Notes under the pieces: model-generated
Database searches by the model: none
Seen by the model: only the letters and a program-made list of their open reading frames with translations
Told to the model about the DNA's origin: nothing
In this document: positions 1,463 to 62,649 of the stretch, piece by piece
Numbering within the stretch: position 1 is the first letter of the stretch
Layout of the letters: each line of letters starts with the position of its first letter
Translations under genes and position numbers: made by a program
NCBI GenBank assembly: GCA_016184345.1
Contig: JACPCV010000004.1
Location: 54,453 to 118,452 of the forward strand
DNA from: Candidatus Woesearchaeota archaeon
GTDB taxonomy: Archaea > Nanobdellota > Nanobdellia > Woesearchaeales > UBA10216
Direction: 5' to 3'
DNA length: 64,000 nt

Positions 1463-1480
1463 GGTGCATAACTACGAGGC

Positions 1481-30311: not shown

Positions 30312-30392
30312 ATTAATATTAACAAATTTGGCTATTATTTAAAACTATCTAAAGCTGGTCCAGCCTCTTAAAGTTTAAGGTCTTTTTCTGAA

Positions 30393-36567: not shown

Positions 36568-37401
36568 TTAGCCCTGCTGCGGCGAATATTTGTCTAGAAT
36601 GTCCTGCCTGCCAGTACACTTGGCAGCCAGAAGCATAAAATTAAGTATCTCAGAGGTCATTTTTTTAGGTATTTCTTCAGGTAGACCTTCTAATTTGCTG
36701 TGAAGGTCAACACCTGCCAATTTCGCAATGTTATAAACTGAAGCTGCAGCTGTGTAGAACCGCAAAGCATTTTCGCAAGTGGTAAAGTACTTATTTATAG
36801 TTTCTTTTCCTACGGTATCGGCCAAGTATTCCTCCAACCGTCTGTCTGAGGCCTCAAACAGTCTGAAGCCAAACATTGAGAGTTGAACTTTCTCTAATTC
36901 TAGAAACTCGCTTTTAACCTGTTCCATCCGGGGCGGGCTAGCGTAGCGATAGAGGTCTGCAAGATGAAGAGAGGCGTCTGCCCAAACATAAAAAAACATA
37001 TACTTTCCCTCACGCCTTTTACCGAATATAATGCCCGGCTGCAGTTTTGCTAACTGCATTTCTAAACTACCAGTTTGCTCTAAAAATTTGTAAACGTTCT
37101 CAAAAGTCACAGCAGTTTGCTCGAAGCGCCGAACCGCCGCTTTCCATTTTCCAAGAGGTATTAGAGGTGGCTCATCGAAGGGTGAGTCTGGATTTATCCA
37201 AACATAAGGATCAAGATCAAACCCATCCAGAATTCTGCGAGCTTCAGCATATTTTCGGATTGCAATTGTTAACTCGGAAAATGTTTGAGGCATCAAAAAA
37301 TCGTGTTCAGCCAGCACTTCTTCTAGAAAGGAAACTGCGATTCCTGAGTAAACTCGCGGCGCTCCTTCAGTCCCATGCTCTTTTGGCAAGTTATCAACCA
37401 T
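36568..37401 (-). CDS. Hypothetical 277-aa protein, the sole cargo between the 44-bp direct repeats
   Basis: Long ORF with no recognisable motif. Opposite strand to flanking genes. Confidence 0.5.
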   Translation of the reverse strand: MVDNLPKEHGTEGAPRVYSGIAVSFLEEVLAEHDFLMPQTFSELTIAIRKYAEARRILDGFDLDPYVWINPDSPFDEPPLIPLGKWKAAVRRFEQTAVTFENVYKFLEQTGSLEMQLAKLQPGIIFGKRREGKYMFFYVWADASLHLADLYRYASPPRMEQVKSEFLELEKVQLSMFGFRLFEASDRRLEEYLADTVGKETINKYFTTCENALRFYTAAASVYNIAKLAGVDLHSKLEGLPEEIPKKMTSEILNFMLLAAKCTGRQDILDKYSPQQG

Positions 37402-37467
37402 TTGAGCAAGTGATTTGAAACTAATATATTAAGATTATGGCTGGAGGACAATCTCAAGTTATGTGGG

Positions 37468-37511
37468 AAGCCGAAGGGCGTGATAACCAAGGCGGATATG
37501 CTGAAGAGGAT
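37468..37511. repeat. 44-bp direct repeat, right copy
   Basis: Perfect copy of 36475-36518. Re-encodes ...KPKGVITKADMLKRI in frame, followed by a stop. Confidence 0.85.
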
Positions 37512-37574
37512 TAGCTGAAGTAAAAACGCTTATAAACAGTAACCACAATTTAGCTGCCAGCGAGGTGCGCTAAA

Positions 37575-38078
37575 ATGGTAAATCGGTTCATTAGCGGGCT
37601 GAGATCCTTAGTAGGAATCAGCGAGAAAGAGGACGTCATTGAACTTAGGGAGCTTGTGAAGGCTCATAAGCTGCTTGAAAAACCCGGAGGCATAAAAGAG
37701 GAACAAAAATTCTACGAAGAGCTGCCTAACAGGATTGAACAAGCCCGCCAATTGTTGTCTGATGCAATGAAGCATGATGAGAAGCTTAAAAGAGCTTCAG
37801 AACAGCTCATGATAAATATAGGCACGTTGCCACTAGCCATGAAAAGGGAAATCGGAGATAGAGAACGGCAAGCCATACTGATAGCGGGAAATATAAAGCA
37901 ACATCTGGATGTGGTAGTTGAAAGCTTGGATGAGTTGAAGCGAACGCTTTACACGTTCAACCTTCAACAGATAGAAGATCATTTGTATAGGATTATTGAG
38001 GCAGTCAGATGGCTGTTCCGGTCAGAGGCAAAAGCGGCACAGATGCTGAAAAGCCTTGAAGATTTGTCAAGGCACTAA
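37575..38078 (+). CDS. Hypothetical alpha-helical/coiled-coil protein
   Basis: 167 aa. GAGGTG RBS ~10 nt upstream. Confidence 0.4.
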   Translation: MVNRFISGLRSLVGISEKEDVIELRELVKAHKLLEKPGGIKEEQKFYEELPNRIEQARQLLSDAMKHDEKLKRASEQLMINIGTLPLAMKREIGDRERQAILIAGNIKQHLDVVVESLDELKRTLYTFNLQQIEDHLYRIIEAVRWLFRSEAKAAQMLKSLEDLSRH

Positions 38079-39359: not shown

Positions 39360-42005
39360 CTATAGAGCCGCTTTCCCGCCAATTCTCTCCAGCACCTTCT
39401 GGTGCATCCTCTTTAGGAACTCCTGCCTGTCCTCCATGCGCATGACATCGGTATGGGCTTCAAGAACTATGCTGAAGGCAAAGGGCGAAGGCATTGGCGT
39501 GTTGATTGCTTTCATCTTAATCTTGCCATCTTCCAGAAGCCTGAGCACTGCTGAGGCTGCGGGAAGGTCCATGAGGTCCTCAAGCACCTCCCTCCTGGCT
39601 TCCTTGAGGATGCTGAAGTCAGGGCTGATTCGCCTGACAGCATTAATCAGTATCTGGGAAGATACCTGCTGCCTGCCAACTCGCCTGGTGTAGCCCTTGT
39701 ACTCGCGCAGAATCATCAAAGCCCGGGCAGCGCAATGCCTGAACCTCCTCCTCAGGATTTCTGTATGCTCAAGGGCTGCTGACAGAATTTGGGGAAGCTT
39801 CTCTGACTTCAGAAGCTTAAGGGCAGCTGTAGCGTTAAACGGCTTCTCGTAAGCGACGTAAAAGCCGTTGTCAGTTATGCCTACCTCAACATCGCGGTGC
39901 TGGGTCCTGGAAATGGCAAAAGCAACCGCCCTTGAAAGGCAGTCATTCACCCTCCTGCCAAACATGGAGTGAAAAACAGCATAATGGCGCCTGTCCTCAG
40001 CATAGCTTTCAATGACGATCTTCCTGTCATGCGGAATCTCTGCAAAAAGGAACTGCTCCCTGAAATAGCTGTAGATTGACTGCGCAGAATTTCCATCAAC
40101 GTAGAGGTAGCTGTTTATGAATTCCAGAATCTCCTCCCTGCTGCGGTTGTGGTTGAACTTCTCTTCCATCAATCTGCGAAACCTGCCGATGCTGCTTGCA
40201 AGGTCAAAGCTCAGCGGCAGCATCTCGGAAAACCACGAAGGGATGGTCGGAGGCCTGTCAACAGAGCCCTTAACGTAAGCAACCATGCCCTTGGCGTGGC
40301 CGAACTGGTACTTATCCCCCCCGAGAACAAACACATCACTCTTCTTGAGCCGCTCAAGGAAAGACTCGTCAATCTTGCCAACAACCTGCTCTGTGCCTGA
40401 AATCTTCACGGTAACAAAGGTTTCATCAGGGATTGTGCCTATGTTTGTCATGTAAATAACACGGCTCAGCCTGCCCCTTCTCCCAACCATCCCTGTTGAC
40501 TCATCATACCATATCTTTGCGTAGATATGCCTATCCTCCAGGGAAATATACTTTCCAGCAAGGTAGTCCAGGACATCCTTGAAGTCATTAAAGCCCAGGT
40601 TGTGGTAGCAGTAGCTGCTGCGAACCATACTGAACAGGTCATTGATGTTAATCCTGTCAGCGATTGCTATCCCGAAAATCTGCTGGGCAAGCACATCAAG
40701 GCAGTTCGTCGGCAGGTGTATCCTGTCAATTTCTTTTTCTATTGCTGATTTCAGAAGCACAGCGCACTCAACGAGATCATCACGGTCAAGGACAACAATC
40801 CTGCCTGTTGAAGTCTCGTGCAGGCGATGACCACTGCGGCCTATCCTCTGGATGGCCCTCGCGACTGACTTTGGGCTGCCGAGGAGAATCACAAGGTCAA
40901 CGTAACCAATGTCAATGCCAAGCTCAAGGCTTGTTGAGCTTACAACGCACTTCAGCTTGCCAGAGCGCAAAGCACTTTCAATGCCGTAACGGTGGGATTT
41001 GCTGAGCGAGCCGTGATGCGCACCTATCGTCTGCTCTGCGGTAGCATAATTTTTGGGGAACTTTTCCTTCAGGTGGTTGATAACGCGCTCTGTCGCCGAC
41101 CTCGTGTTGGTAAAAATAAGCGTCGTGCGGTGCTCCTGGATTAAGCTGTCAATAAGGGTGTACATGGCATCACGCATCGACGCCTGGCTGGCATCAATCA
41201 GGTCAGGAACCGGGCTGATAACCTTCAGGTCCATCTTCTTGACAAACTGGACGTCGCAGATTTTGCAGTTCCTGTACTTGCCGCTGCCGACATCGGCAAT
41301 GCCAACAAGGAATTTCGCAATCTCTTCCAAAGGCGCGATTGTCGCTGAAAGCCCAATCCTTGTCATGGCAGGGGAAAGCCGCTGCAGCCGCTCAAGGCTA
41401 AGCGAAAGATGAACACCCCTCTTGTTTTCCGCAAGGGCGTGAATCTCATCAATAATGCACCAGTCAACTCTTCCCAGATGGGCAACGAACTTTGACGAAG
41501 AGAGGACAATCGCCAAGGATTCCGGAGTGGTGATAAGGATGTGAGGCGGCTTTCTGAGCATTTTTGACTTCTCAGCTGCGGTTGTGTCGCCGGTTCTCAC
41601 GGCAACGCGAATGCCAAGCTTTTTGCCTGCAAGCTTCTCAATCTCCTCCAAGGGCTCCTTAAGATTCTTGCTGATGTCATTGTTCAATGCTTTAAGAGGT
41701 GAAACGTAAACGCAGTAAATCCTGTCCTCAAGGATGCCCTTCTGGCTGCAGTCAACCAGCTCGTTAAGGATGGAAAGGAAAGCAGTCAGTGTCTTTGTTG
41801 CCCCTGTAGGGGCTGAAACGAGAATGTTGCCCCTGCTGTGGATTTCCATCACGCCAAAAAGCTGCGGCAGGCTGAACTCCTTAAAGCGCGAGAAAAACCA
41901 CTGCTTAACAAGCGGGTTTAGTATGCCAAGTATCTCATCAGGAGTGTTTGGCACTTCCTTCCTTGCAATTTCTCCGCCATCCGCAGAAGCTGTTGCAATA
42001 ACCAT
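39360..42005 (-). CDS. lhr: Lhr-type ATP-dependent helicase (superfamily 2, DEIH)
   Basis: 881 aa, Walker A APTGATKT, DEIH box (CIIDEIHAL), SAT, and an Lhr C-terminal domain. Confidence 0.9.
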   Translation of the reverse strand: MVIATASADGGEIARKEVPNTPDEILGILNPLVKQWFFSRFKEFSLPQLFGVMEIHSRGNILVSAPTGATKTLTAFLSILNELVDCSQKGILEDRIYCVYVSPLKALNNDISKNLKEPLEEIEKLAGKKLGIRVAVRTGDTTAAEKSKMLRKPPHILITTPESLAIVLSSSKFVAHLGRVDWCIIDEIHALAENKRGVHLSLSLERLQRLSPAMTRIGLSATIAPLEEIAKFLVGIADVGSGKYRNCKICDVQFVKKMDLKVISPVPDLIDASQASMRDAMYTLIDSLIQEHRTTLIFTNTRSATERVINHLKEKFPKNYATAEQTIGAHHGSLSKSHRYGIESALRSGKLKCVVSSTSLELGIDIGYVDLVILLGSPKSVARAIQRIGRSGHRLHETSTGRIVVLDRDDLVECAVLLKSAIEKEIDRIHLPTNCLDVLAQQIFGIAIADRININDLFSMVRSSYCYHNLGFNDFKDVLDYLAGKYISLEDRHIYAKIWYDESTGMVGRRGRLSRVIYMTNIGTIPDETFVTVKISGTEQVVGKIDESFLERLKKSDVFVLGGDKYQFGHAKGMVAYVKGSVDRPPTIPSWFSEMLPLSFDLASSIGRFRRLMEEKFNHNRSREEILEFINSYLYVDGNSAQSIYSYFREQFLFAEIPHDRKIVIESYAEDRRHYAVFHSMFGRRVNDCLSRAVAFAISRTQHRDVEVGITDNGFYVAYEKPFNATAALKLLKSEKLPQILSAALEHTEILRRRFRHCAARALMILREYKGYTRRVGRQQVSSQILINAVRRISPDFSILKEARREVLEDLMDLPAASAVLRLLEDGKIKMKAINTPMPSPFAFSIVLEAHTDVMRMEDRQEFLKRMHQKVLERIGGKAAL

Positions 42006-42059
42006 GAGTTGCTGGAATGGAAAGAGTGTTTAAAAGGGTTACTCACGCATATGATGGTG

Positions 42060-42171
42060 CGCCGGGAGCGGGAACTTCACCTCCCTAGGAAAGGATTTGA
42101 ACCCGCAGGGCCTCTGGGGAAGCCCACTCGTTTCTGAAACGAGCGCGTCTACCTGATTTCGCCATCCCGGC
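42060..42171 (-). tRNA. tRNA-Leu (anticodon CAG), class II, with a ~22-nt intron in the T-loop (59/60)
   Basis: Acceptor GCCGGGA/TCCCGGC, 3-bp D-stem GCG/CGC, anticodon arm CTCGT-TTCAGAA-ACGAG, long variable arm. T-stem GCGGG...CCCGC is interrupted after TTCAAA by TCCTTTCCTAGGGAGGTGAAGT. Confidence 0.6.
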
Positions 42172-42562
42172 GTGAAATAAGCACTGCAAATCAAGATTCA
42201 AATGCCTTTCGTGCAGATTTCCGGAAAACTTTCGAATTATTCAGAAGAGTTTTGTTTAATGCCGTAAATTTTTCACAAATTCGTTAATTTCCCGAAAAGT
42301 TTCCGGTTTGCCCGGATTATTTCGCCCAGGATTTTAGAAAAGTTTATTAATAACCTCACCCATACGGTAGATAAGACCTCTGGGGAAGTTTAAGCGCACG
42401 CCGGTTTCGCCTTTCTTTTTTATTTTTGATCTATTTTTCTCATAGCTGAACAAGTAGTTCACAAAAGTTTATTAAGAAGTTCCACTTAATAACAAATAGA
42501 TTGTTGTGCACAGTTTAGGCGTATACCAATTACGCCATTTTCTTTTTATTTTTTAAACTTAA

Positions 42563-43282
42563 TCAGGCATAGATGCCGTACAAAAGCAAAAGCCCTAACA
42601 GGCTTATTGTTCCAAAAACTGCGACTATAAGCTCCATAAGCCAAATCCTTGAAGGCAGCACTTTCCATTTCAAATGCCCGAAAGCAGCTATGCTGTCCAG
42701 CAGGCTTTTAAACCCAAAAGAGAACCAAAACAAAAGATAGCTGCTCTGCTGCACAGCCAATACAATCAAAACAGTAGTAAAAGCATGCACAAACAATGCG
42801 AAAATTCTTTCAATTACCGGCGCAGTTGCAGTCAGAATAAACTCTGAAACCTTTTTTTGTTTTTCTTCAGCCGCTTGGGAGAGCGAGAAAAGCCCAAGAA
42901 CCCAAGCTTCGGTTGCTCCGAAACCAACACCGAAAACCAAAGCCTCCGGCCAACTTGCTGCACGAAGCATAGGCTGTAAGAGAACAAACAGCAGCACAAT
43001 TCCACACTCAAATATTCCTGTGAGAAACCCAATGTAGGCCCAGCTGGCAGGGCCTGATAAAGCTCTTGGAAAATTCTTCTCGAGAAAATCCATTACGGGT
43101 TTGTTAGTAGGAACACTCCAAGCAAGTTTCAAGCCAACCGCTACAAGCCACGCCAAAGCACCAAGCGCTAGAAATGGCAAAGCGGAAGAACCAGAAACGG
43201 CCATAACTCCTATGGCAGCCACTACAGCTACACCACCCATGCCTAAACGGCCAGCATAGGAAAGAAGACTGGCGGTTGCCAT
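42563..43282 (-). CDS. Polytopic membrane protein, hypothetical
   Basis: 239 aa, ~7 TM segments. Confidence 0.4.
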   Translation of the reverse strand: MATASLLSYAGRLGMGGVAVVAAIGVMAVSGSSALPFLALGALAWLVAVGLKLAWSVPTNKPVMDFLEKNFPRALSGPASWAYIGFLTGIFECGIVLLFVLLQPMLRAASWPEALVFGVGFGATEAWVLGLFSLSQAAEEKQKKVSEFILTATAPVIERIFALFVHAFTTVLIVLAVQQSSYLLFWFSFGFKSLLDSIAAFGHLKWKVLPSRIWLMELIVAVFGTISLLGLLLLYGIYA

Positions 43283-45915: not shown

Positions 45916-46479
45916 TCAGCGCTTAAACTGGGCAAGGTCAATAACTGCCAGAAAATCCCTTCCCCCATTGGCATATGATACTTCCAGGCTAGGGTGCTTA
46001 AAAGTCGTGAAGCCACCCCTTCCCGGATTCTCCCTGATTTCCTTTTCATAATCCCACTCTTTTGCATTCGGGTTTGAAATGTGCATCAAGGCATGAGAGG
46101 AGTCAGCGGGATGGTAATGCCGTATGACCGTCAGTGCATTTTTAACATCTTCCCCGCCATGCACAACAAGGTTTGCAAGTGATTCAGAGAAAATTCCTAT
46201 AAACAACCAGTACTGCATTCCAAAAAATTGTTTTGTGAATAAGCGGTAATAAAGCTGAAGAGAATGAGCAAGGCCGGCCACCTTGTCTAGACTCACAACC
46301 TGCTCATACTGGGTAAGCCTATAGGGAAGCGTAACATTCTCCCATCTATTAGGAGTGAAGTGCTCGTAATTACCAAAGCTTGCAGCGCCATCCCAACCGA
46401 TGAGCGCCAACATCCCATCCAAACCCAAATCCGGCCGAAATGTCATAAAAAGAAATGCCTTACTTCCTAGCCTTCTCAA
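45916..46479 (-). CDS. Hypothetical protein, occupies the position after rpsL where rps7 would be expected
   Basis: 187-aa ORF overlapping the rps12 stop by ~20 nt. No ribosomal S7 features. Confidence 0.35.
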
Positions 46480-46903
46480 GCTTGCCGTGAAGCAGAGCGT
46501 TAAGCGACTGGTCGTTGACCTTGATGACCTTCCACCTCACGCCTGGAATGTCACCGTAAGACCTGCCCTTCCTTCCCCCAATGCACTCAACCATTACCTC
46601 ATCGTGCTCGTCAATAAGCTTTGAAGCGCCATCGCCAGGGCAAAATGCTGTCACCTGCCTGCCATTCTTGATCAATTGAACTCGAACGCACTTCCTCATC
46701 GCAGAGTTAGGCTGCTTTGCCTCAAACTGCACCTTCTCAAGAACAATGCCCTTAGCCTGCCATGAGCCCTCAAGAGGGTCAGACTTAACCCTCAGGTTCA
46801 GAACCCTTGCCACGTAAGAGTGCTTCGCCCACCTCGCCCTGGCCCTGCGCCTAGCAAGCGAGCCTCCTGCATTCAAACCACGAGCCTTCTTCGCCATATC
46901 CAC
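46460..46903 (-). CDS. rpsL: 30S ribosomal protein S12 (uS12)
   Basis: 147 aa, [31 protein letters not shown] signature. Confidence 0.9.
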
Positions 46904-46941
46904 AAGAGCATTAAGGGGTGGTTTATAAAGATTACTAACGC

Positions 46942-46975
46942 TTGAGCTGTAAGGTTAGCGGGTGGTAAGCAAGGT
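46942..46975 (+). repeat. Island boundary repeat A (ttgagctgtaaggttagcgggtggtaagcaaggt), outer left
   Basis: About 31/34 identical to repeat B. Its reverse complement matches repeat D (52753-52785). Confidence 0.7.
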
Positions 46976-47240
46976 ATTGTTCAGGGTTTGTGTTAAGTAA
47001 CAGATGTTAAGGAAACGTCTGAAAAACATTTATAAAGGTCTATTATTGAGCTTTTTCTATGGGTAGGGCACCAAGCCATAAAACAGAGAGGTATGGTGCA
47101 AAGGTAAGCCATAAACAGGTTGTTTGCTCAAAACAGTTCCCAGAATGCCCTGAAACTCCGAATTACAACGATTGCCACACTTGTCCCTTGTGGGGAACGG
47201 GCATTAGTTCAACATATAAGCAAAAATGGTTAAACGAAAA

Positions 47241-47274
47241 TTGAGCTGTAAGGTTAGCGTTTGGTAAGCAAAAG
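47241..47274 (+). repeat. Island boundary repeat B (ttgagctgtaaggttagcgtttggtaagcaaaag), inner left
   Basis: Its reverse complement matches repeat C (52332-52362), about 21/27. Confidence 0.7.
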
Positions 47275-47306
47275 CTGTTTATAAAACTAGCTTTGATGAG
47301 GTAAAA

Positions 47307-47897
47307 ATGCTTATTCCGCCTTATCCAATAATCCCGATGCAATTTCAATATTTGGAAAAGATTGATAAAATTGCTCAGGATTTGCAAGAGAAGGCAAAAC
47401 AGCACGGTCACAAAGATAAATTTATTGATGGGAACGAGTTAAGAGCCAATAAAATCGGTAAATTAGGCGAACTCGGTTTTAGGGACTTTCTTGATTTATA
47501 TTCAATCAAGTATGAATATGATGAAAGTTTGGATGACCTTGATGAAAAGGATTTTTTCTTATGGGAAGCAGAGAAAAAAGCAAAGTTAGATTTAAAGACT
47601 CAACGTATAAGGGAAAATCAACGACCTATACCTATTTGGAATTGTGAGGTTAATGATAAGCAAAAAGATAAAAAAATGGATTACTATGCTTTTACAAAGT
47701 ACAATGAGGATATTCAGGAACTTCATTTTGTTGGATTTATTGGTTATGAACGTTTCTGGAAAATAGCTCAAAAAAGGAAAGTTGGAGAAACGTTTTTTGG
47801 TGGAGAACCAGTAAAAGGCGACAATTGGTGTGTTCAAATATCGGATTTAGAAACGCCTGAAGAATTTTTAAAACAATTTAAAAAGAAACAACAATAA
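47307..47897 (+). CDS. Hypothetical protein, convergent with the methyltransferase; possible PD-(D/E)xK nuclease
   Basis: 196 aa, AT-rich. Segment ...GFRDFLDLY...DFFLWEAEKK offers a possible D...E-x-K arrangement, weakly supported. Abuts the methyltransferase stop with no gap. Confidence 0.3.
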   Translation: MLIPPYPIIPMQFQYLEKIDKIAQDLQEKAKQHGHKDKFIDGNELRANKIGKLGELGFRDFLDLYSIKYEYDESLDDLDEKDFFLWEAEKKAKLDLKTQRIRENQRPIPIWNCEVNDKQKDKKMDYYAFTKYNEDIQELHFVGFIGYERFWKIAQKRKVGETFFGGEPVKGDNWCVQISDLETPEEFLKQFKKKQQ

Positions 47898-49448
47898 TTA
47901 AAAGTGTCCTATTTTCTTTTGACTTTCCCTCTTTGTTGATAAATCTTTAATTCCTTGCGCTTCTTTGAATGGCATATAGCTACTCGGTAATCTTAATCTC
48001 GTATCATCTAAAAATTCTTTAATGGTAATTATTTGTATTTTTGGATATTCTTCTTCCATCATCCCAATTTTAAAGAAGCCTTCCTTATTCGCTTCTTCTT
48101 TCATTGGCTTTGTTGGGTCTTCCAAAGTTATGAGAACCCCTCCAATAGCTTTTTCCCTTTTCATATCACCATTTAAAGCAGAAATATCCTTCCTTTGAAC
48201 CCCGCCGCTCTTAACCTGAATAAGAATTTTCTCAAAGTCCTTTTCAGAAGTTCTTATGATAACATACCCGTCTATTCCTTCATCGGCACTTTTCTTTTTT
48301 GAAGGGATTGCATTAACTAAACTTAAAGCCCAATATTGAAATTCAAACCTGTTTTTTAAAGCGAGTTCTTTTGCACCCCCAACGTCTTTCGGAATACCAT
48401 CAAGACTAATCTTTATGCCTTTTTCAAATAAGTGAAATTGTTTTTCTAACCTGCTTTTAATAAGAGTAATGGCTAATGTTGTAATGTCAATTCCGACCCA
48501 TTTTCTATCTAAATGTTCAGCAACAGAAACCGTAGTTCCACAACCGCAAAAAGGGTCAAGAATAACATCGCCCTTATTTGAACTTACACGGATAATTCGT
48601 TCCAAAAGTGCCTCTGGTTTTTGAGTGGGATAACCTAAAACTTCTTGGTCTCTTTTCAAAGTCATCATATCAATACCGTGCAAAGGCTTTACATCACCCC
48701 ACCAATCCCTCAAAGGATAGCCTTTTGCCTCATCTAAATATTGCCTATACCTCCCCCCACTTCCATCAGGTTGTAATTGAAAAAGCCTTCCTTTTTCGTC
48801 TATGTGCGTAAAATACATTTTTATATAATTATCATCATAAGGGGTAAATTGTATGTTAAAAGTGTATTCGCTACTCTTCGTATAAAAGAAAATTATGTCG
48901 TGCTTTCTTGAATATTTCTTAGCTTTCGGGCTTTCCCTTCCACTATAACACCATGCGATTTCATTCCTAAAATTGTTTTTATCAAATATGCTGTCTAAAA
49001 TTATTTTTAGATAATGGCTTGCGGTTGGGTCGCAATGTAAGTAAATAGACCCTGTTTTTTTCAAAACCCTATGCAGTTCTATTAATCTTATTGTCATCAT
49101 TACTAAATAAGCCATCATATCGTTTTCGCCTAAAATCTTCTTAAATCCTTGAATTAAATCAGAAATCTCAGTGTTTATTTTTGTTTTAGAAGGTCTTGTG
49201 CCTATCAGTTCTTCAAAAGTTCTTTCTGCCTCTTCCGTCCAATGCCATGTATCATCAAAAGCTTTCAGTTGTGCACCATTTTTAACAAGCCCTTCTTTAA
49301 ACAGAATATTGTATGCTCTATTGGAATTAAATGGCGGGTCAAGATAAATCAGGTCAATGCATTCATCTGAAAATCTATCTCTTAATACTTCAAGATTATC
49401 GCCAAAAAATAAGGTTCTATTTTCCATTAAGCTTATTTTTTGCACCAT
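47898..49448 (-). CDS. Beta-class DNA amino-methyltransferase fused to a C-terminal Mrr-like PD-(D/E)xK nuclease domain
   Basis: 516 aa. DPPFNSNRAYN (motif IV) then DPFCGCGTT (motif I). C-terminal ~180 aa carry ADEGIDGYVI and ILIQVKSG, resembling the Mrr catalytic GIDG / Q-x-K motifs. Confidence 0.7.
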   Translation of the reverse strand: MVQKISLMENRTLFFGDNLEVLRDRFSDECIDLIYLDPPFNSNRAYNILFKEGLVKNGAQLKAFDDTWHWTEEAERTFEELIGTRPSKTKINTEISDLIQGFKKILGENDMMAYLVMMTIRLIELHRVLKKTGSIYLHCDPTASHYLKIILDSIFDKNNFRNEIAWCYSGRESPKAKKYSRKHDIIFFYTKSSEYTFNIQFTPYDDNYIKMYFTHIDEKGRLFQLQPDGSGGRYRQYLDEAKGYPLRDWWGDVKPLHGIDMMTLKRDQEVLGYPTQKPEALLERIIRVSSNKGDVILDPFCGCGTTVSVAEHLDRKWVGIDITTLAITLIKSRLEKQFHLFEKGIKISLDGIPKDVGGAKELALKNRFEFQYWALSLVNAIPSKKKSADEGIDGYVIIRTSEKDFEKILIQVKSGGVQRKDISALNGDMKREKAIGGVLITLEDPTKPMKEEANKEGFFKIGMMEEEYPKIQIITIKEFLDDTRLRLPSSYMPFKEAQGIKDLSTKRESQKKIGHF

Positions 49449-49468
49449 CTTTAAAAACTTTCTTTTCG

Positions 49469-49663
49469 CTACTTTGTTTCTATTAAATCTACTCTTGTTT
49501 TATCGTTTTTGCTTATGACTATTTTTCCTTTTTTTATCTCGGCTTCTAAGTCTTGTCCTTCTTTCCAACCTATTTTATCAATAAGAAAATTAGGGATTAC
49601 TATCCAATGTTTTTGATATGCTTTTCCCTTGTATTCTCGGCTTTTTTGCTTTAATAGTCGCAT
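49469..49663 (-). CDS. AbrB/SpoVT-like small DNA-binding protein
   Basis: 64 aa, HWIVIPNFLIDKIGWKEGQDLEAEIKKGKIVISK. Divergent from the transposase gene across a motif-rich 117-bp spacer. Confidence 0.4.
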   Translation of the reverse strand: MRLLKQKSREYKGKAYQKHWIVIPNFLIDKIGWKEGQDLEAEIKKGKIVISKNDKTRVDLIETK

Positions 49664-49667
49664 AAGA

Positions 49668-49775
49668 AGTCTTAGATACCTACCCCTTTATAAGCATTTC
49701 GGTATCTAAACATATAGTTCCGATTAACTCTCTTTAGGTATCGAAATGTTTATATACTTGCTTAGATACCTAATA
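49668..49775. promoter_or_regulatory. Four copies of an AGATACC/GGTATCT motif in the divergent intergenic spacer
   Basis: cttagatacct at 49671-49681 and 49761-49771 (direct). Inverted ggtatct at 49701-49707 and ggtatcg near 49737-49743. Confidence 0.45.
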
Positions 49776-49779
49776 CGCT

Positions 49780-50661
49780 ATGGAAATGCAAACAAAATGC
49801 GTCTTTTGCAAAGCCACCAACTATATCAAGTGGGGTACTCGCAAAACAGAGAACAGGGGTAGTATTCAGAGGTATAAATGCCTGTCTTGTAAGAAGCGAT
49901 TTACTAATGATGATGGTTTTTACAGGATGCGAAATAGCGAAGAGAAGATTACAGCAGCTATTGACCTTTACTTTTCTAACTTGTCCAGTAGGAAGGTTAG
50001 GAACCACTTTAGAAGGCATTGGAACCATAATGCCAGTCATATGAGCATACTTGATTGGTGCCGAAGATACACCCTTAAAATCCAAAAATACGTGGCTACA
50101 ATGCAGCCACAGCTAAGTGGGCAGTTCTATATGGACGAAACCGAAATAGACAGAGGCAGGGGAAATGATGTTTTTTGGTGTAACGTGGACTGGGGAACAC
50201 GATTCATTAACTCAACAATGTATAGTCCTCACAATCAAACTGTAGAGGATGCTGCTACTTTCCTTAAAGCTACTGTTGCCAAAGGACTGCCAAAATACAT
50301 TCAGACAGATGCGGGTGTTTTTTACCCACAGGCATTTCAAAAGACCTTCTACTCAAGTAAAGCACAAGGTTTGACAGTAGAACACCGCATCCAGAACTAC
50401 CACAAAACAGGCAAGCACAACGTAAGGATTGAAACCGTCTTTATGAAGGTCAAAGACCGAGTGGACGATTTTAGAGGGCTTAAAGCCCTATGGAGTGCTC
50501 CGATACTAATGCAGGGCATAATATTACAGCATAACTTCATAGAAGCACACACAACAACAGGAAAAGTGCCTTCAGAATTAGCAGGTCTTAAACTGGAGGC
50601 AGGACAAAACAGATGGCTTGGAATGATAAAGTTGGCTTCGTCGGGAACAAAAGGTTTATAA
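49780..50661 (+). mobile_element. DDE transposase with N-terminal zinc ribbon, IS6-like
   Basis: 293 aa. CVFCKATN...YKCLSCKK zinc finger, then FYMDETEIDRGRG...NVDWGTRFI, resembling the DETY(V/I)K and D..R core of IS6-family enzymes. No matching terminal inverted repeats found. Confidence 0.5.
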
Positions 50662-50705
50662 ATAACGTTATATTAACGTTAAATAAACGTTATGAGGACG
50701 TTAAG

Positions 50706-50882
50706 ATGTATGTTCCAAAAGGTAAGCGGAAATTTTTTATAACTGTAAGAGAAGTCAGAGCAGATAACGTTTTAGGGGATTCAGAGTCGTTTTCGGTTTA
50801 TGATTCAGAAGTAAGAATGACCAGAAGAGAGCTTGTAGATTTTTTGACTCAAAAGATTAACGAGACGGATAAAGATGTTTGA
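50706..50882 (+). CDS. Small hypothetical protein, first gene of the unknown island operon
   Basis: The internal ATG (MYVPKGKRKFFITVREV...) has a GAGGA RBS 8 nt upstream. The ORF-track start at 50613 extends into the transposase gene. Confidence 0.25.
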   Translation: MYVPKGKRKFFITVREVRADNVLGDSESFSVYDSEVRMTRRELVDFLTQKINETDKDV

Positions 50883-51519
50883 ACTAATAAAATTCGTAGG
50901 CGTAATTTGGGATTACTACGATAACACTAACACACTTATAAGAATTTTGAAAACAATTTGGCGATACGTGAATTTCTGGAAATGGTTTATTCAAAATCCA
51001 AAAATTAGAATGAAATATGGAAGATTAATTAATGCAAAAGGAAACTACAATGATAGCTTATTAAAAATAAAATCAAAACTAAAATCTGGCGATTATGAAT
51101 TTAGTGACGGCGTAATAGAGCATGATAATAAATTACTTTTTGAATTTAAGGATACCAGATTAGGTTATCAAATAAAATTTTATCCATTAAAAGAAAATTC
51201 TCATCATATCAAAATAAGCACAATATTCTACACACTCTTTCCTTTTCGTGAATTAACTACCATTAATGATATTAAGAAGGATTTTTATCGTCTTTGTGAA
51301 TTAATAAGAACATTAATTAAGATGCAAGGAAACGAAAACGAAACTATATTTTTAGAAGTTGGAGTAAAAAATAAAAATTCCATCAGGTCAAGTTTTGATT
51401 ATAAAGATGTTCACGTAACATTCTTAGATGAAAAAATCCAGATTGATAATACGTATGGTTCAGAATTTGACCAGATAATTCTTCTTATTTTAACAAGATG
51501 GCTGATAGACCGTAACTAA
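50875..51519 (+). CDS. Hypothetical 214-aa protein (AT-rich, island)
   Basis: Overlaps the upstream small ORF by 8 nt, so operon-like. No recognisable motif. Confidence 0.4.
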   Translation: MFELIKFVGVIWDYYDNTNTLIRILKTIWRYVNFWKWFIQNPKIRMKYGRLINAKGNYNDSLLKIKSKLKSGDYEFSDGVIEHDNKLLFEFKDTRLGYQIKFYPLKENSHHIKISTIFYTLFPFRELTTINDIKKDFYRLCELIRTLIKMQGNENETIFLEVGVKNKNSIRSSFDYKDVHVTFLDEKIQIDNTYGSEFDQIILLILTRWLIDRN

Positions 51520-52286
51520 TGAGAATAATCTTCGTAACCTTGAGATACTTCGGGTAATTCAGTTTGAACTTCCGATTTTTGAACATAGTCAGAATAAGGC
51601 AGGAAAATTGTTGTAAGTTCTTTAAGCAACAAGATTTCTTCATCTGAGTTCTTCAGAATAATGTGTTTTAACAAAGAACCAGATTTAAAGATGGCAACTT
51701 TAATCCTTTTTCCTATTTTTGATAAGACCTCAACACCTATCCCCTCTCTTTCTGAAGGGGCTGTTATAAACTTGAGGTCTTCATCAATTTCTTCCCCATA
51801 TTGACCTTGATATTTTATGTTACCTTCTTCCCTGACACCGTTAAACCAGATATTATCAAATTCGCCCTTTCTTTTAGCTTCAAGGACTAATTGCGGTTTA
51901 AAACTAACTGGGCGAATCTTTTTACCTGATTCATATAAAATCTTACTTAAAATCTCAATACCGAATAAACTAGCTTTTTCTTTTGATTCAAATAAAATAA
52001 CATCAATATCAGGAAATATTGTAAAATTTAATTCGTCCTTGAGAAAAATGGGCTTTTCTTTTAAAATTGGCATATAATTATCCTCAATCTCATAATCATA
52101 GTCCATATACCGCCTTTTAACAAGAATTGTTCCACTAATAAACTTTCTTTTTTCTGAAATAAGAGGTTTGCCAGCAATTCTCACTTCTTTAATCCTATCA
52201 GAATCAATTGATTTATAGTTAAAACCGATTAATTTCTTCTCGGCTTCTTTCTTAGTTATTTTAAGACATTTTGTAATAAACGCCAT
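51516..52286 (-). CDS. Hypothetical 256-aa protein (AT-rich, island)
   Basis: Convergent with the 50875 gene, 3' ends overlap by 4 nt. No recognisable motif. Confidence 0.4.
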   Translation of the reverse strand: MAFITKCLKITKKEAEKKLIGFNYKSIDSDRIKEVRIAGKPLISEKRKFISGTILVKRRYMDYDYEIEDNYMPILKEKPIFLKDELNFTIFPDIDVILFESKEKASLFGIEILSKILYESGKKIRPVSFKPQLVLEAKRKGEFDNIWFNGVREEGNIKYQGQYGEEIDEDLKFITAPSEREGIGVEVLSKIGKRIKVAIFKSGSLLKHIILKNSDEEILLLKELTTIFLPYSDYVQKSEVQTELPEVSQGYEDYSH

Positions 52287-52331
52287 ATTCCATAACTTAA
52301 AAATATGGGTATATAAACCTTTATCACTTGT

Positions 52332-52362
52332 CAGTTTACCAAACGTTTACTTTATAGCCAAC
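52332..52362 (-). repeat. Island boundary repeat C (inverted copy of B), inner right
   Basis: Reverse complement gttggctataaagtaaacgtttggtaaactg vs B gctgtaaggttagcgtttggtaagca. Confidence 0.65.
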
Positions 52363-52364
52363 AA

Positions 52365-52697
52365 TCATTTGCCTTTTAGTAGTTTATTTACTGTTGGTAG
52401 GCTTTTTTTAACTTCATCCAACAACTTAAGTTGAACCTCAAGTGGCAGGACTGGAGCGATTATGGTTTCAATAACTACCTTAAGCCGCTTAACATAGAAC
52501 TCTACACCCTCCTTTTTCCCAGCAGCAACTAACGCTTCAGACAGGTCATAAACTGCTTTTTGAATCCGCTGAAACTCTGGCTTAAGACTTTGCTCTACTA
52601 CTCCCCGAGCAACTTCCTCTTCAGGCACGCCCAGCATAGCAGCCAGCTCCTTACGCTTCTGCTTATAAAAATCCGTTTGCTCCTTATCCCACTCCAT
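52365..52697 (-). CDS. Hypothetical 110-aa helical protein between inner and outer right repeats
   Basis: Normal GC. Lies between repeats C and D. Confidence 0.4.
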   Translation of the reverse strand: MEWDKEQTDFYKQKRKELAAMLGVPEEEVARGVVEQSLKPEFQRIQKAVYDLSEALVAAGKKEGVEFYVKRLKVVIETIIAPVLPLEVQLKLLDEVKKSLPTVNKLLKGK

Positions 52698-52752
52698 AAA
52701 GAGTCAAAAGAACAAGCTAAAGATAAAAAGCTTCCCATCCCTAACCAAGAAG

Positions 52753-52785
52753 CTACCACCCGTTTACTTTACAGCCCACTAACGC
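52753..52785 (-). repeat. Island boundary repeat D (inverted copy of A), outer right
   Basis: Reverse complement gcgttagtgggctgtaaagtaaacgggtggtag vs A gagctgtaaggttagcgggtggtaag. Both share the gggtgg variant. Confidence 0.65.
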
Positions 52786-52842
52786 TTGGCATTTGTTCCT
52801 TATTGGTATCCCTTCTATGCTAGCGTCAGATAAACTTCAGAA

Positions 52843-53361
52843 CTACACAACCTTTACTTCTTTTATCGGGAAATATCTCTGGATTATGGATTCCATGTTC
52901 CTGAGGTTCCTGCCGGAACGGCCGATGAGGTAGCCGCGGCTTTCTGACGACTCCGGGGTTATTGTGATTATGCCGTCTGAAACTGAAATGTCCCTTGCCT
53001 TGGAGGGCTGGATGAGGCCGGCCACGAACTGCACAAGGTCGTCGGAGAACTCTGCTATCTTGACTTTCCTTTTCAGGGCTTCCTCAATGCGCTTCACGTT
53101 TGCGCCTCCTTTCCCGACAGCAAGGCCGTACTGCGCTGGCTCAACCACGAAAACGAGAAGGCTGTTCTGGTCAACAAAGCAGTCCTTCAGCCTGGCTTTT
53201 GTAGCTGCCTCAAAGAAGGACATCAGCTTCATCAGCGTATTGTCATACTTTATTTTCTGCATCTTATCATGAGAATCAGCGGCAGCAGCCATCATCAACG
53301 ACCATTCACGGATATTTATCTCAAAACGCCCACTACAGATATGGAGAACGGCTTCTTGCAC
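52843..53361 (-). CDS. nusA: Transcription elongation/termination factor NusA (archaeal, KH domains)
   Basis: GLAVGKGGANVKRIE and LIGRSGRNLRNME KH motifs. The likely start is the internal Met at ~53262 (MQKIKYD...), which avoids overlap with L30e. Confidence 0.75.
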   Translation of the reverse strand: MQEAVLHICSGRFEINIREWSLMMAAAADSHDKMQKIKYDNTLMKLMSFFEAATKARLKDCFVDQNSLLVFVVEPAQYGLAVGKGGANVKRIEEALKRKVKIAEFSDDLVQFVAGLIQPSKARDISVSDGIITITPESSESRGYLIGRSGRNLRNMESIIQRYFPIKEVKVV

Positions 53362-53586: not shown

Positions 53587-56289
53587 TCACGCCTTAGCTT
53601 CCTGCCTTTTTGAAACCAGCTTCGGGAGGCCAGTTCCAACTGGCACGGGCTGGTTCAGCATTACATTCTCAACAACTGAAGTCAGGTTGTCAACCTCTCC
53701 GTAAAGGCTTGCATTTATTATGTGCTTTATGGGAGTCTCAAAACTGGCACGGGCAAGGACGCTTGCCTTGTCCCTTACAACACCGTACCTTGTTATGCCC
53801 TTTACCTTGCCGTCAGCGCACATGACATCGGCAACAAGCATCAAATGACGGATGTCAACGTTAAGGCCCTGGGTCTCAATGACCTTGTAAACCTCATCAA
53901 TCACTGCCTGCCTTGCAGCCTCTATGCCAAGGGTTTCCTCAATCTCAAAAACATCATTAGTTGTTGTCCTTGTCTCGTCAACGAACGGCAGCTGGAGCAC
54001 CTTCTTCAGGTTTGAGCCGAACGTGAGTATGACATACTCATTGTTCTTCCTGACAGGAAGCACCTGAGACACCCCCCTGACTCCCCTGACAAAGGTCTCC
54101 TTGGCCTTCTCCTTGAGCTTGAATATGTCGCTCACCCCGCCTTCCTTTGCCTTTACCTTGAGGATAAGGGTATCGCTTTTTATGTCAACGTGAACGCCCT
54201 TGACGCCAACCTTGAGCGCCTTGGCAAGCGTGACCTCGTTAATGCCAAGCTCCTTCATCTTGCCTGTATCAAGCTGCACCTCAATCCTGTTGTCAGCAAC
54301 ATTGATTGAGAACTCCAGGGCTATGTCCTTGAGCTTGGTCTCCTTAACCATCAGCGCAACCTTCTTGATGTCCTGGCCCTCGGAGTAGGGCTTCTTGAGG
54401 TAAATCTCCATCATCGGGGTAGTCAGGTTTTTCCTTCCATCCAGGATTTCAATAATCCTCGGCAGTCCCATGGTGACGTTCATCTCTGAAACGCCTGCGA
54501 AGTGGAACGTGTCCAGAGTGTTGTGGGTTACGATGCCGTCAAAGGTTGTGAAGGTCTCTGTATCTTCCACAGAGAAGTCATAGACGTGTACCGCAGTTGG
54601 TTTCACATAATCCAGCGCCACTATTTCGTCCCACACAACATCAGCATCCAACATCCTTTTAATTACGCCCAGTTCTTCGCTGATGTCAGCACTCTTTTTT
54701 GCTGCAAGCGCCGAGAAATTTTCGGCATACCTTGCAAGCGCTGCCCTTCCCACCTTCTGCTTCCTTGTCAGCTTGGTTACCAGCCTGCTTGGAAGCCCAA
54801 GCTTCTGGCCAAGCGCTGCAAACAGCTGCCCGTAGCCGGGAATCATGTCAATTACGTCATAACTTTTTCCCCTCACCTCAGCCGCTTCCAGCTTTTCAGC
54901 CAGCTTAACCAGCGCGGCCCTCTTTTCAGGAATCATTGAGCCAATCTTTTCCAAAAACTTTTTGCCGTACCTGTAGGAAATGGAAAGCCAGCACTGGCCC
55001 TTCTTATCCGAATTCTTTACAGAAAATATTCCCAGCCGCGTGAGCAGCAAAGAAATTCCGTCAATAAGCTCCTCAGAATTGGAGCTGGCCCTTATCACAT
55101 TTCTAATGACGCTTACATTTCCGTCGCCGTCAAAATACGCCTGCAGCAGGCTGGCGATGAAATCCTCATTGGCATCGTAAGCGAATGCGGGAATTTTCTT
55201 GTTGTCTGATTTCTTGCCGCAGACCAGCCTAAGAAGGTCTGCAAGCACTGTTGAGTGCATCCATAAGGTGGTGCTTGGCCCGAATTCGCCCATTTCGCGC
55301 TTGACGTTATAGCCGACTTTGTACTTGCCTGCGAACTGCACAGCCATTGCCAAATACTCTTCTGACACGTTGGAAATGCCTACAGAGTTCTCGACGTGAA
55401 CGCCTTCCGCGAGGTAAGCGCCAACAAGCCAGCCAAACGAGCTGTCAAGGGGCATGACTTCATGTATCTGAGCTCTGCCGTGGTTCTGGTAAGGGTAAAC
55501 AAAGCCTTCCTGGACTAAAACCTGGTTAGCTGAATTGGCGTAATTATTTATCTGCTCGTACTTCAAGGGAATTGTGGCTGCGCTGTGCAGCCTGCTGTTG
55601 CTCTCAATGGCTTTTTTAAGCTCGCTGCCATAGACATACCTTTCTTTTGGCAGGAACTCTTCAATTGCAAGCAAGTCTTTCGATCCGGCAATGGCAAGCT
55701 TCCTAAGCGCTGGAATCCTGGCGCCAACTTTTAAGCTGGAGCCTGCAACAGGCTTAACCTTGTTGTCGTCTCTTATGACAAAGGAGTGGTATGGCGTGGC
55801 TACAATCTGCCTTCCGGAAGCGGTTGTTATCCTCAACAGCTTGGAAGGAGCCGTGTGCCTGCTGACCGCAGTAATCCTGCGCCACACTATTTTCTCATCC
55901 TTGCCTAAGCTGGGCACAAACACATTGCCAGCAAGCTGGCAGACCGATGTTTGCTCGTGATTAGCCAGCTCCTTGAAGCCGTAAAACGCCATGGCGGCAT
56001 CAACGAACCTTCCAATCTCCACCGCTTTAACGCCCTGCTCGACCTTAATAATGACCTTTTCCGCATAGTCGACTGACATCTGCGTTCCTGGCTCGCCTAT
56101 GGACTCCGCAGCAACCAGGCCGACAGACTCGCCTGCCTCAACCTTCATTCCAGAGTACTCGTCAGCAATGCTCTTGGCAATCTCCTTTGCCCTTGAGTCT
56201 GAAACCTTTTCAGGCATTGCCGCAACTACCTCTGCATAGAGCCCTGGCGGAAGGGTGCCCTGAAGTTCCTTCAAAATGCTGGTTGCCAT
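53587..56289 (-). CDS. rpoA2: DNA-directed RNA polymerase subunit A'' interrupted by an intein
   Basis: 900 aa, against ~380 aa for a typical A''. Exteins: N-terminal 71 aa ending GEPGTQM; C-terminal 310 aa starting TLDTFHFAGVSEMN. Confidence 0.9.
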   Translation of the reverse strand: MATSILKELQGTLPPGLYAEVVAAMPEKVSDSRAKEIAKSIADEYSGMKVEAGESVGLVAAESIGEPGTQMSVDYAEKVIIKVEQGVKAVEIGRFVDAAMAFYGFKELANHEQTSVCQLAGNVFVPSLGKDEKIVWRRITAVSRHTAPSKLLRITTASGRQIVATPYHSFVIRDDNKVKPVAGSSLKVGARIPALRKLAIAGSKDLLAIEEFLPKERYVYGSELKKAIESNSRLHSAATIPLKYEQINNYANSANQVLVQEGFVYPYQNHGRAQIHEVMPLDSSFGWLVGAYLAEGVHVENSVGISNVSEEYLAMAVQFAGKYKVGYNVKREMGEFGPSTTLWMHSTVLADLLRLVCGKKSDNKKIPAFAYDANEDFIASLLQAYFDGDGNVSVIRNVIRASSNSEELIDGISLLLTRLGIFSVKNSDKKGQCWLSISYRYGKKFLEKIGSMIPEKRAALVKLAEKLEAAEVRGKSYDVIDMIPGYGQLFAALGQKLGLPSRLVTKLTRKQKVGRAALARYAENFSALAAKKSADISEELGVIKRMLDADVVWDEIVALDYVKPTAVHVYDFSVEDTETFTTFDGIVTHNTLDTFHFAGVSEMNVTMGLPRIIEILDGRKNLTTPMMEIYLKKPYSEGQDIKKVALMVKETKLKDIALEFSINVADNRIEVQLDTGKMKELGINEVTLAKALKVGVKGVHVDIKSDTLILKVKAKEGGVSDIFKLKEKAKETFVRGVRGVSQVLPVRKNNEYVILTFGSNLKKVLQLPFVDETRTTTNDVFEIEETLGIEAARQAVIDEVYKVIETQGLNVDIRHLMLVADVMCADGKVKGITRYGVVRDKASVLARASFETPIKHIINASLYGEVDNLTSVVENVMLNQPVPVGTGLPKLVSKRQEAKA
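54520..56076 (-). other. Intein (519 aa) with LAGLIDADG homing-endonuclease domain inside rpoA''
   Basis: Starts with Ser (SVDYAEKVIIKV, block A) and has block B GRQIVATPYHSF. Two LAGLIDADG motifs (GWLVGAYLAEG, LLQAYFDGDG). Ends VTHN followed by Thr +1. Confidence 0.8.
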
Positions 56290-62515: not shown

Positions 62516-62649
62516 CGGGCCGGACGGGACTTCCCTACCTTATCCTTTTTGGCCAAGCTTTTTGCTCGCCACAGCGAGGAAAAAGGTTGTTTGAACCCGC
62601 GACCCACGGATTAAAAGTCCGTTGCGCTGCCAGGCTGCGCTACCGGCCC
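62516..62649 (-). tRNA. tRNA-Lys (anticodon UUU) with a 60-nt intron in the T-loop between positions 59/60
   Basis: GGGCCGG-TA-GCGC-AGCCTGGCA-GCGC-A-ACGGA-CTTTTAA-TCCGT-GGGTC-GCGGG-TTCAAA[60-nt insert]T-CCCGT-CCGGCCC-G. The mature sequence is 74 nt with all stems paired. CC follows the discriminator. Confidence 0.7.

Follow-up and report, generated by a model that had tools for sequence, protein, structure and literature searches.

Introduction

To our knowledge, Rex exclusion is the only known role of the RdgC/RexA fold on a mobile element, and it is still poorly understood; the mobile elements of DPANN archaea are, as far as we know, almost unexplored. In lambda, the rex genes (cI-rexA-rexB) are co-transcribed and RexB is a small membrane protein. 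RdgC of E. coli (PDB 2OWL), a recombination-associated nucleoid DNA clamp, is a protein of 303 amino acids (aa) encoded by a stand-alone bacterial housekeeping gene; it forms a homodimeric ring, binds DNA without sequence specificity and inhibits RecA. The group of folds to which RdgC, RexA, IML3, CHL4 and CENP-L belong has been described as a shared DNA-binding scaffold (PMC11077077), and YejK and CENP-N are further fold relatives (PMC11229321). In this study, we analyzed a stretch of 64,000 nucleotides (hereafter, the window) from a Candidatus Woesearchaeota archaeon (GCA_016184345.1, contig JACPCV010000004.1, positions 54,453 to 118,452). Four adjacent open reading frames (ORFs) of an island in this window had been proposed, from the sequence alone, to form a compact and possibly novel defence or addiction system. 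We found that three of them, of 58, 214 and 256 aa, constitute one conserved cassette. This cassette recurs within a family of IS6-like DDE transposons from DPANN-type archaea and resides on other mobile or variable regions as well.

The closest described elements are those of the IS6 family of insertion sequences (IS), which is marked by direct repeats of 8 bp and by inverted repeats that contain an internal cTGTt. This family is homogeneous: its members measure 700-890 bp and carry the transposase as their only gene, with one known transporter IS (tIS) that has a single passenger gene. Moreover, IS6-type elements without a resolvase depend on host homologous recombination for their cointegrates (PMC7986276). 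The elements described here share with IS6 the 8-bp target site duplications (TSDs), short terminal inverted repeats (TIRs) that include cTGTt (TGRGCTGTnAAGT), and a transposase whose best family match, at a score below the curated cut-off, is IS6 and whose N-terminal zinc finger is found in the longer IS6 members. Unlike IS6 elements, they are 2,121-5,997 bp long, hold 4-9 genes with a conserved cargo, and start with TG(A/G)G tips instead of GG. Their novelty is the combination of an IS6-type transposon with a module of predicted RdgC/RexA fold, both parent kinds being already known. We found no description in the literature of the two larger protein families of the cassette, of the cassette itself, or of IS6-like elements in which several genes form a conserved core.

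A conserved cassette of three genes

The four ORFs lie where they had been placed, at 50706-50882 (+), 50875-51519 (+), 51516-52286 (-) and 52365-52697 (-), and encode 58, 214, 256 and 110 aa, respectively. Both reported overlaps are exact. The 58-aa and 214-aa ORFs share 8 nt (50875-50882), and the convergent 214-aa and 256-aa ORFs share 4 nt at their stop codons (51516-51519), where CTAA provides TAA on the plus strand and TAG on the minus strand. We refer to the families of the 214-aa and 256-aa proteins as p214 and p256. Both families are very rare. A first pass through 5.8 billion clusters retrieved five relatives of p256, and 33 representatives out of 1.84 billion matched its profile; for p214, the first pass yielded three relatives and the profile search 14. 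The highest identity to the window proteins is 70%, and the lowest values are about 28% (p256) and 27% (p214).

The original prediction had raised the question of whether homologues of these two proteins are always adjacent. They are neighbours in every locus that contains both, that is, in 11 of 11 independent loci (the window, L001, L004, L007, L009, L010, L011, L013, L016, L017 and L041), with membership of the partner family checked by hidden Markov models (HMMs). L-numbers designate genomic loci or contigs fetched as the context of homologues or sequence matches. The gene order is convergent in ten of these loci, nine of which show a stop-codon overlap of 4-13 nt. In the remaining locus, the Nanohaloarchaeal metagenome-assembled genome L016, p214 and p256 are co-directional; therefore, their adjacency has outlasted a rearrangement. 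More distant p256 relatives, with about 20% identity, are found in L018 and L040. There, the convergent partner has about 200-230 aa and a 4-nt overlap, and its homology to p214 could not be demonstrated.

Both p214 and p256 are under purifying selection, with dN/dS values of 0.08-0.25 against their orthologues. Because the families are conserved and constrained in this way, we consider the 214-aa and 256-aa ORFs to be real genes. In the NCBI annotation of the region (MBI2176188-94), the 214-aa gene is called as 183 aa and the 58-aa ORF is absent. The 31 N-terminal residues dropped by NCBI are conserved across the p214 family alignment, which shows the 214-aa start to be correct. On the other hand, homologues of the 58-aa and 110-aa ORFs could not be detected, so that what backs them is only position and promoter context for the former and length for the latter.

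In agreement with the earlier statement that no motif could be placed, none of the four ORFs had a significant match in Pfam, PADLOC, NCBIfam or PHROGs. The HMMs of PADLOC-DB v2 gave no match to them at E <= 1, and PDB sequence searches with the two family profiles and the 110-aa protein returned nothing significant. Nor did the searches bring up any housekeeping family. At the family level, 13 p214 members gave no PADLOC match, and 31 p256 members gave a single one (one member to an ATPase-Toprim model, E 8.5e-4) that is not attributable. No p256 relative was present in the IMG/VR viral contigs. We discarded the idea that p214 and p256 are diverged paralogues, as hhalign between them was not significant.

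The fourth ORF does not belong to the cassette. The claim that all four ORFs make up one system draws on their contiguity in the window and on the common strand of the 110-aa ORF and the 256-aa gene, but we regard it as essentially excluded. The predicted helical 110-aa ORF (52365-52697, minus strand) is separated from the 256-aa gene by an inner TIR (52336-52360), and its GC content is 0.44 versus 0.27-0.31 in p214 and p256. Scans of viral and JGI metagenome sequences, of the fetched loci and of the family libraries yielded no homologue of it, and in L004 the equivalent position is occupied by an unrelated ORF of 88 aa. PCNA-like PDB matches of the 110-aa protein (E 0.1-0.3) were dismissed as not significant. 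Hence, the unit consists of three genes, which the 110-aa ORF never accompanies. This ORF is an unrelated orphan passenger of the outer shell of the transposon, situated, as had been noted, between the inner (52336-52377) and outer (52754-52794) right-hand repeats.

A presumed small regulator and its putative operator

The 58-aa ORF (50706-50882, plus strand) is the presumed autoregulator of the cassette. Taken mechanically, this ORF extends to an ATG at 50613 and encodes 89 aa. This longer version starts inside the transposase gene, upstream of the operator and TATA array, and we preferred the 58-aa version with its ATG at 50706. Directly upstream of this start codon, an operator-like array of four (A/G)ACGTT hexamers with an exact spacing of 11 nt (50664-50702, plus strand) overlaps a TATA-like sequence. 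The array of four ACGTT repeats is unique in the window and did not appear in any of 100 shuffles.

A small gene overlaps the start of p214 by 8 nt (or 4 nt) in at least six independent loci. The overlap of 8 nt, of the ATGnnTGA type, is present in the window, L003, L005, L007, L009 and L013, and each small gene is preceded by a TATA-like box that overlaps short repeats. In most relatives, the regulator is a ribbon-helix-helix (RHH)-like protein of 48-49 aa with weak NikA-like matches, and in L041 it is an AbrB/MazE-like protein of 58 aa. The 58-aa protein of the window is not homologous to either type. At the position of the ACGTT array, the relatives carry GTCC/GGAC repeats, 11 nt apart where measured, so the sequence of the repeats changes along with the type of regulator. 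Mainly on account of this covariation, we accept that the 58-aa ORF encodes a genuine autoregulator, which derives by displacement from another family, and for the same reason we prefer the ATG at 50706 over that at 50613. The 58-aa protein would act by binding DNA.

This organization is reminiscent of type II toxin-antitoxin (TA) systems, in which a small RHH- or AbrB-type protein is encoded upstream, with translational coupling, operator repeats and carriage on mobile genetic elements; in the cassette, binding to the repeats is a prediction. The small ORF and p214 might accordingly be read as a classical type II TA pair, the 256-aa gene being merely linked or a third regulatory component. 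The 8-nt overlap, the operator repeats, the mobile location and the antitoxin-like interchangeability of RHH and AbrB folds all speak for such a pair. Yet we find it unlikely. The adjacency of p214 and p256 is conserved at least as well as that of the small ORF and p214: directly before p214, L016 and L017 showed no small gene, and none was called there in L010 and L011. In addition, the regulators, at 48-58 aa, amount to minimal DNA-binding domains, those of 48-49 aa being too small to include a toxin-neutralising segment, and p214 matches no known toxin family or toxin fold. Finally, a TA pair leaves unexplained the third, convergent gene that is invariably linked to it.

The 256-aa gene appears to have a promoter of its own. 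A TATA-like element, AAAGGTTTATATAC, lies on the minus strand at 52309-52322, about 30 nt upstream of the ATG, and the DNA similarity to L001 and L004 stops at this very element. The same 14 nt form an inverted repeat with 49744-57, which we had considered as a pair of IS ends. We now read the two copies as inward-facing B recognition element (BRE)/TATA boxes, the real ends being the TGRGCTGT repeats with TSDs described below.

The transposon that carries the cassette

The island is an IS6-like DDE transposon of 5,836 bp (46943-52778). Its mobile nature and its restriction-modification (RM) genes had been noticed, but the transposon, with its TIRs and 8-bp TSD, had not been recognised. The GC content of the island is 0.29-0.39 versus about 0.50 in the flanks. 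It is bordered by a NusA-like KH gene (52843-53361, minus strand) and rpsL (46460-46903, minus strand). The element inserted between NusA and the promoter of rpsL, in a gene cluster (rpoA''-L30e-NusA-S12) that is conserved in archaea. This result places a mobile element within the conserved NusA-rpsL cluster of ribosomal and RNA polymerase genes.

The ends were delimited from the motif TGRGCTGTnAAGT, which in L001, L004, L007, L009 and L013 precedes the p256 homologue at a distance of about 60-85 nt. Mapping of this motif on both strands disclosed TIRs of about 25-30 nt. In the window, the outer left TIR is TGAGCTGTAAGGTTAGCGGGTGGTAAGCAA (46943-46972, plus strand), with the tip common to the ends in L001, L004, L009 and L013, and the outer right TIR is TGGGCTGTAAAGTAAACGGGTGGTAGCTTC (52749-52778, minus strand). 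The outer left TIR is directly abutted by the 8-bp TSD CTAACGCT (46935-46942), of which an identical copy stands at 52779-52786; an empty target site would read ...GATTACTAACGCTTGGCATTTG....

Perfect 8-bp TSDs delimit three other elements: the outer element of L004 (1319-7315, 5,997 bp, CGAATTGT), that of L009 (2759-4879, 2,121 bp, GAATTATG) and that of L013 (5919-9473, 3,555 bp, CTATAAAA). A perfect 8-mer at an exact junction has a probability of about 1.5e-5, and four such cases therefore exclude chance. No recognisable TSD flanks the element of L001 (9916-13453, 3,538 bp). In 16 of 16 Logan contigs that contain the p214 gene of the window, the island occupies the same site, so that other samples gave no sign of recent mobility; the empty site was not searched for.

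The element of the window has a second, inner pair of repeats. The inner left TIR-like repeat (47242-47271, plus strand) is 94% identical to the outer left TIR. Its counterpart, the inner right TIR TGGCTATAAAGTAAACGTTTGGTAA (52336-52360, minus strand), is the end found with the cassette in most of the relatives that we examined. The inner pair carries CGTTTGG and the outer pair CGGGTGG, and the inner pair lacks a clean TSD (5/8). An RM fusion gene, an AbrB-like gene, the transposase gene and the cassette are enclosed by the inner pair, and the outer shell contains only a 61-aa Cys-rich ORF and the 110-aa ORF. Likewise, L004 has an extra inner end adjoining p256, and L020 shows two direct copies of the TIR. 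The nested arrangement could have originated by a nested insertion followed by deletion, by intramolecular events of the IS6 type, or as multiple transposase-binding sites.

The transposase (49780-50661, plus strand) is a DDE enzyme of 293 aa with an N-terminal zinc ribbon. Its best family match is NCBIfam IS6 (E 1.2e-18), at 67.6 bits and under the curated cut-off of 125. It also matches IS1 (6e-7), the family by which NCBI labels it, and Pfam DDE_Tnp_IS240, with 27.4 bits at a cut-off of 27. Orthologues with 60-68% identity adjoin the cassette in L001, L007 and L013. In L009 only a transposase relic of 44 residues is left, and in L004 a type IIG RM gene takes its place. The recurring gene set of the family comprises the transposase, an AbrB/MazE-like protein, the small regulator, p214 and p256, and RM genes and small ORFs are variable extras. 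Altogether, an IS6-related transposase here mobilises elements of 2-6 kb with a conserved multi-gene core, two protein families of which have no annotation in any resource searched. The annotation of the locus is corrected in three respects, namely the boundaries of the element, the start of the 214-aa gene and the small ORF that had been missed.

Predicted folds and possible function

The structural model of p256 shows the fold of RdgC, RexA and IML3-CHL4, with both the base and the centre domains of RdgC. In the fold comparison, the two tabulated figures were 12.2 / 204 for E. coli RdgC, 8.1 / 120 for CHL4, 8.0 / 170 for CENP-L, 7.7 / 150 for IML3 and 6.4 / 155 for lambda RexA. This likeness is not reflected in sequence. 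Neither the window protein nor any of 31 family members matched the RdgC profile in Pfam (PF04381), alignment of the p256 family profile to E. coli RdgC by hhalign gave E 0.37, and no similarity to RexA was found. Unlike RdgC, p256 is tied to an obligate partner gene, bears an acidic tail and is located on mobile elements. As for the IML3-CHL4 and CENP-L-CENP-N heterodimers of the kinetochore, they are eukaryotic chromosomal proteins; p214 and p256 show no detectable homology to each other, and a heterodimer of this kind is a conjecture. Judged by the model, p256 is most likely a DNA-binding dimeric clamp.

The conserved motif of the p256 family, W-x-x-G...GNI...QxGxxIDxD, falls in a low-confidence loop of the model, its acidic part QxGxxIDxD being an unstructured stretch at residues ~161-176. 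The closer p256 clade has, in addition, a disordered acidic C-terminal tail. Many p256 C-termini (alignments A1 and A3; residues 237-256 in the window) end in sLxD[FWY][FLIM], for instance SLNDWLH, TLGDFI or ELEDFFV; the window protein has a degenerate form of this motif (GYEDYSH), and distant relatives lack it. By our reading of its sequence, the tail resembles archaeal PCNA-interacting peptides (PIPs) or the tails of SSB-type proteins.

The p214 protein is predicted to start with an amphipathic helical hairpin, followed by TBP-like/helix-grip domains. A search of BFVD with p214 yielded template-modelling scores of at most 0.35 and was uninformative. No transmembrane helix is predicted anywhere in the family (maximum 19-residue Kyte-Doolittle hydropathy <= 1.4), and we rejected a role of p214 as a membrane effector for this reason. 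The RdgC/RexA-type DNA-binding fold suggested by the model is the only functional lead. It fits a Rex-like exclusion function, but a recombination or DNA-handling accessory of the transposon as well.

With a probability of roughly 0.4, the cassette would be a selfish conflict module of Rex-like logic (exclusion, abortive infection or addiction), a view that we modestly favour over that of an accessory. Four observations lead us to this preference. The cassette outlives the transposase, which is degraded in L009 and replaced in L004; its plug-and-play repressor resembles the control modules of TA and RM systems; p256 and RexA have a common predicted fold; and the cassette sits among defence-type cargo. 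Elsewhere, its neighbourhoods include Mrr, Vsr, HicB, MNT, MazE/PIN, RM and conjugation genes. Other settings feature genes of a type IV secretion system, ArdC or NikA-like genes (L011 and L017) and, on a short contig, Prim-Pol and Dam (L009). A conflict module would explain why the cassette persists on elements that have lost their transposase. Moreover, the positional partner of p256 in L018, non-homologous to p214, has one N-terminal transmembrane helix (maximum hydropathy 2.97) that recalls membrane effectors of the RexB type.

Several points weigh against this preference. The cassette encodes no effector domain, p214 has no membrane segment, the defence HMMs found no match apart from the unattributed one mentioned above, and the fold of p256 is nearer to housekeeping RdgC than to RexA. 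The comparison with lambda Rex is also limited, as the cassette shares no sequence similarity with it. In contrast to RexB, p214 looks soluble, with its TBP-like domains and no transmembrane helices, and no polytopic RexB-like protein takes its place next to p256. Furthermore, the rex genes are co-transcribed, whereas p214 and p256 are convergent and have an archaeal host.

In the arrangement that we propose, the small protein would bind the four ACGTT repeats, phased by 11 nt over its own TATA box, and repress its own promoter, thereby controlling the translationally coupled 214-aa gene. The 256-aa gene would be transcribed convergently from the TATA box that abuts the transposon end. As a probable dimeric clamp of RdgC/RexA fold, p256 would bind DNA, with p214 as its functional partner. 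Under the conflict reading, p256 would sense foreign or abnormal DNA, and p214 would be its effector or modulator. Tight repression and the convergent overlap would then keep the two products balanced.

A possible but less probable explanation is that the cassette is an accessory of DNA transactions, in which the p256 clamp and p214 modulate host recombination or replication at the element. Such an accessory could control the homologous recombination that resolves cointegrates, protect transposition or conjugation intermediates, or target replication forks; the RdgC-like fold and the PIP-like tail would suit it. Against it, the cassette persists without the transposase in L004, L009, L010, L011, L016-L018, L040 and L041, the PIP-like tail is missing in distant relatives and degenerate in the window protein, and no ATPase or nuclease is present. 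In addition, tight autoregulation by small, swappable repressors would be expected of TA, RM or defence modules rather than of transposition accessories.

Three further ideas were dropped. A relaxase or mobilisation module, prompted by the weak NikA-like matches of the small RHH proteins, is not borne out by the family alignments, in which no conserved HUH motif was seen. A partition system, suggested by the RHH protein and the kinetochore-like fold, would require an NTPase, and the cassette has none. An analogy to Kiwa (KwaB/DUF4868) was abandoned because neither a literature link between KwaB and RdgC nor a PADLOC match was found.

It is tentatively conceivable that p214 and p256 are the two subunits of a new archaeal DNA-sensing system, in which a clamp of RdgC/RexA fold would bind DNA and a swappable mini-repressor would exert control. 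This system would be the conserved core of a new lineage of large IS6-like 'transporter' transposons in DPANN archaea, either as a Rex-like exclusion or addiction device or as a self-encoded modulator of recombination. In the latter role, it would substitute for the resolvase that IS6 elements lack; in both, the module would represent a new functional class of transposon-borne systems and the first functional context for archaeal RdgC-fold proteins. The strict pairing, the convergent overlap and the swappable regulator make the cassette a compact and experimentally tractable candidate, either for a novel conflict system or for a modulator of recombination encoded by the transposon. Altogether, the system envisaged in the original prediction is compact, conserved, mobile and novel, it comprises three genes and not four, and a defence or addiction role for it is plausible, as an inference.

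Other genes of the transposon and of the window

Upstream of the transposase gene, the transposon encodes a 64-aa AbrB/MazE-like protein (49469-49663, minus strand; Pfam MazE_antitoxin, 3.7e-5) that is recurrent in the transposon family, with homologues of 48-84% identity in L001, L004, L007, L013, L020 and L026. The divergent intergenic region of 116 nt between this gene and the transposase gene holds four GGTATC/GATACC half-sites, arranged as two inverted pairs, and the TATA-like sequence TTTATATA (49675-49770). These four matches, out of 26 in the whole window, fall within 96 nt. The half-sites are probably an operator by which the AbrB-like protein controls the transposase, and promoters are presumed to lie in the same region. 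In the equivalent place of L013 we observed TTCGGTACCGAA palindromes.

Further to the left, a 516-aa N6/N4 DNA methyltransferase is fused to an Mrr-type restriction endonuclease domain (47898-49448, minus strand; Pfam N6_N4_Mtase 3.8e-45, Mrr_cat 3.6e-10). The adjoining 196-aa ORF (47307-47897, plus strand) has no family match and may be a restriction partner of the methylase. In the outer shell, the putative 61-aa ORF (47059-47244, plus strand; GC 0.43) is Cys-rich and zinc-ribbon-like, with a weak similarity (E 0.006) to a 62-aa ORF of L004-L006. Rfam detected no known RNA within the island.

A module composed of a TIR, an unannotated ORF, a DNA methyltransferase and an AbrB/MazE-like gene is found again in L020 (1861-3793) and L026 (9754-11586), where the RM genes are different ones. 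In both, the unannotated ORF that stands with the methylase next to the TIR differs from the 196-aa ORF of the window. The module of L020 is bounded by the two direct TIR copies, the second of which overlaps the 5' end of the AbrB-like gene. This pattern suggests that RM modules are exchanged like cassettes at this end of the transposon. In L001 (12643-13414), a DUF6864 protein (121 aa, E 3e-15) and an ORF of 83 aa come after the AbrB/MazE-like gene, possibly as a separate TA-like pair within the same transposon family.

Single copies of the 18-mer TIR core TGAGCTGTAAGGTTAGCG were observed in the metagenome contigs L021, L027, L031, L033, L034 (labelled human gut) and L037, and in L023, L028, L038 and L039. 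Their flanks are conserved in two recurrent groups, GGATTCGATT|TGAGC...AACAATATTTG and AGCATTGATT|TGAGC...GCAAGGTTAG, and these contigs show neither an inverted partner nor a cassette nearby. The single cores might represent solo ends, belong to another element or have arisen by chance; by our own rough estimate, about 20-30 chance matches of an 18-mer are plausible in a collection this large.

Other low-GC patches of the window (0.31-0.43 versus about 0.50), at 1000-4000, 29000-31000, 37000-38000 and 42000-43000, could be further foreign insertions; they contain no TGRGCTGT TIR motif and no second copy of the transposase. Directly downstream of rpsL, where rpsG (S7) is the gene expected in archaea, a 187-aa ORF with a TTG start (45916-46479, minus strand) overlaps the end of the S12 gene and has no Pfam match. 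The sole Rfam tRNA match, of 58 nt (62592-62649, minus strand), is barely over the threshold and coincides with no ARAGORN call. ARAGORN did call a tRNA-Leu(CAG) of 91 nt at 42082-42172 (minus strand), which may hold an intron. On the other side of the island, the gene for RNA polymerase subunit A'' (53587-56289, minus strand) encodes a 900-aa product with an intein, recognised from Pfam matches to Intein_splicing and LAGLIDADG_3 between two RNA_pol_Rpb1_5 segments in the identical gene of L045.

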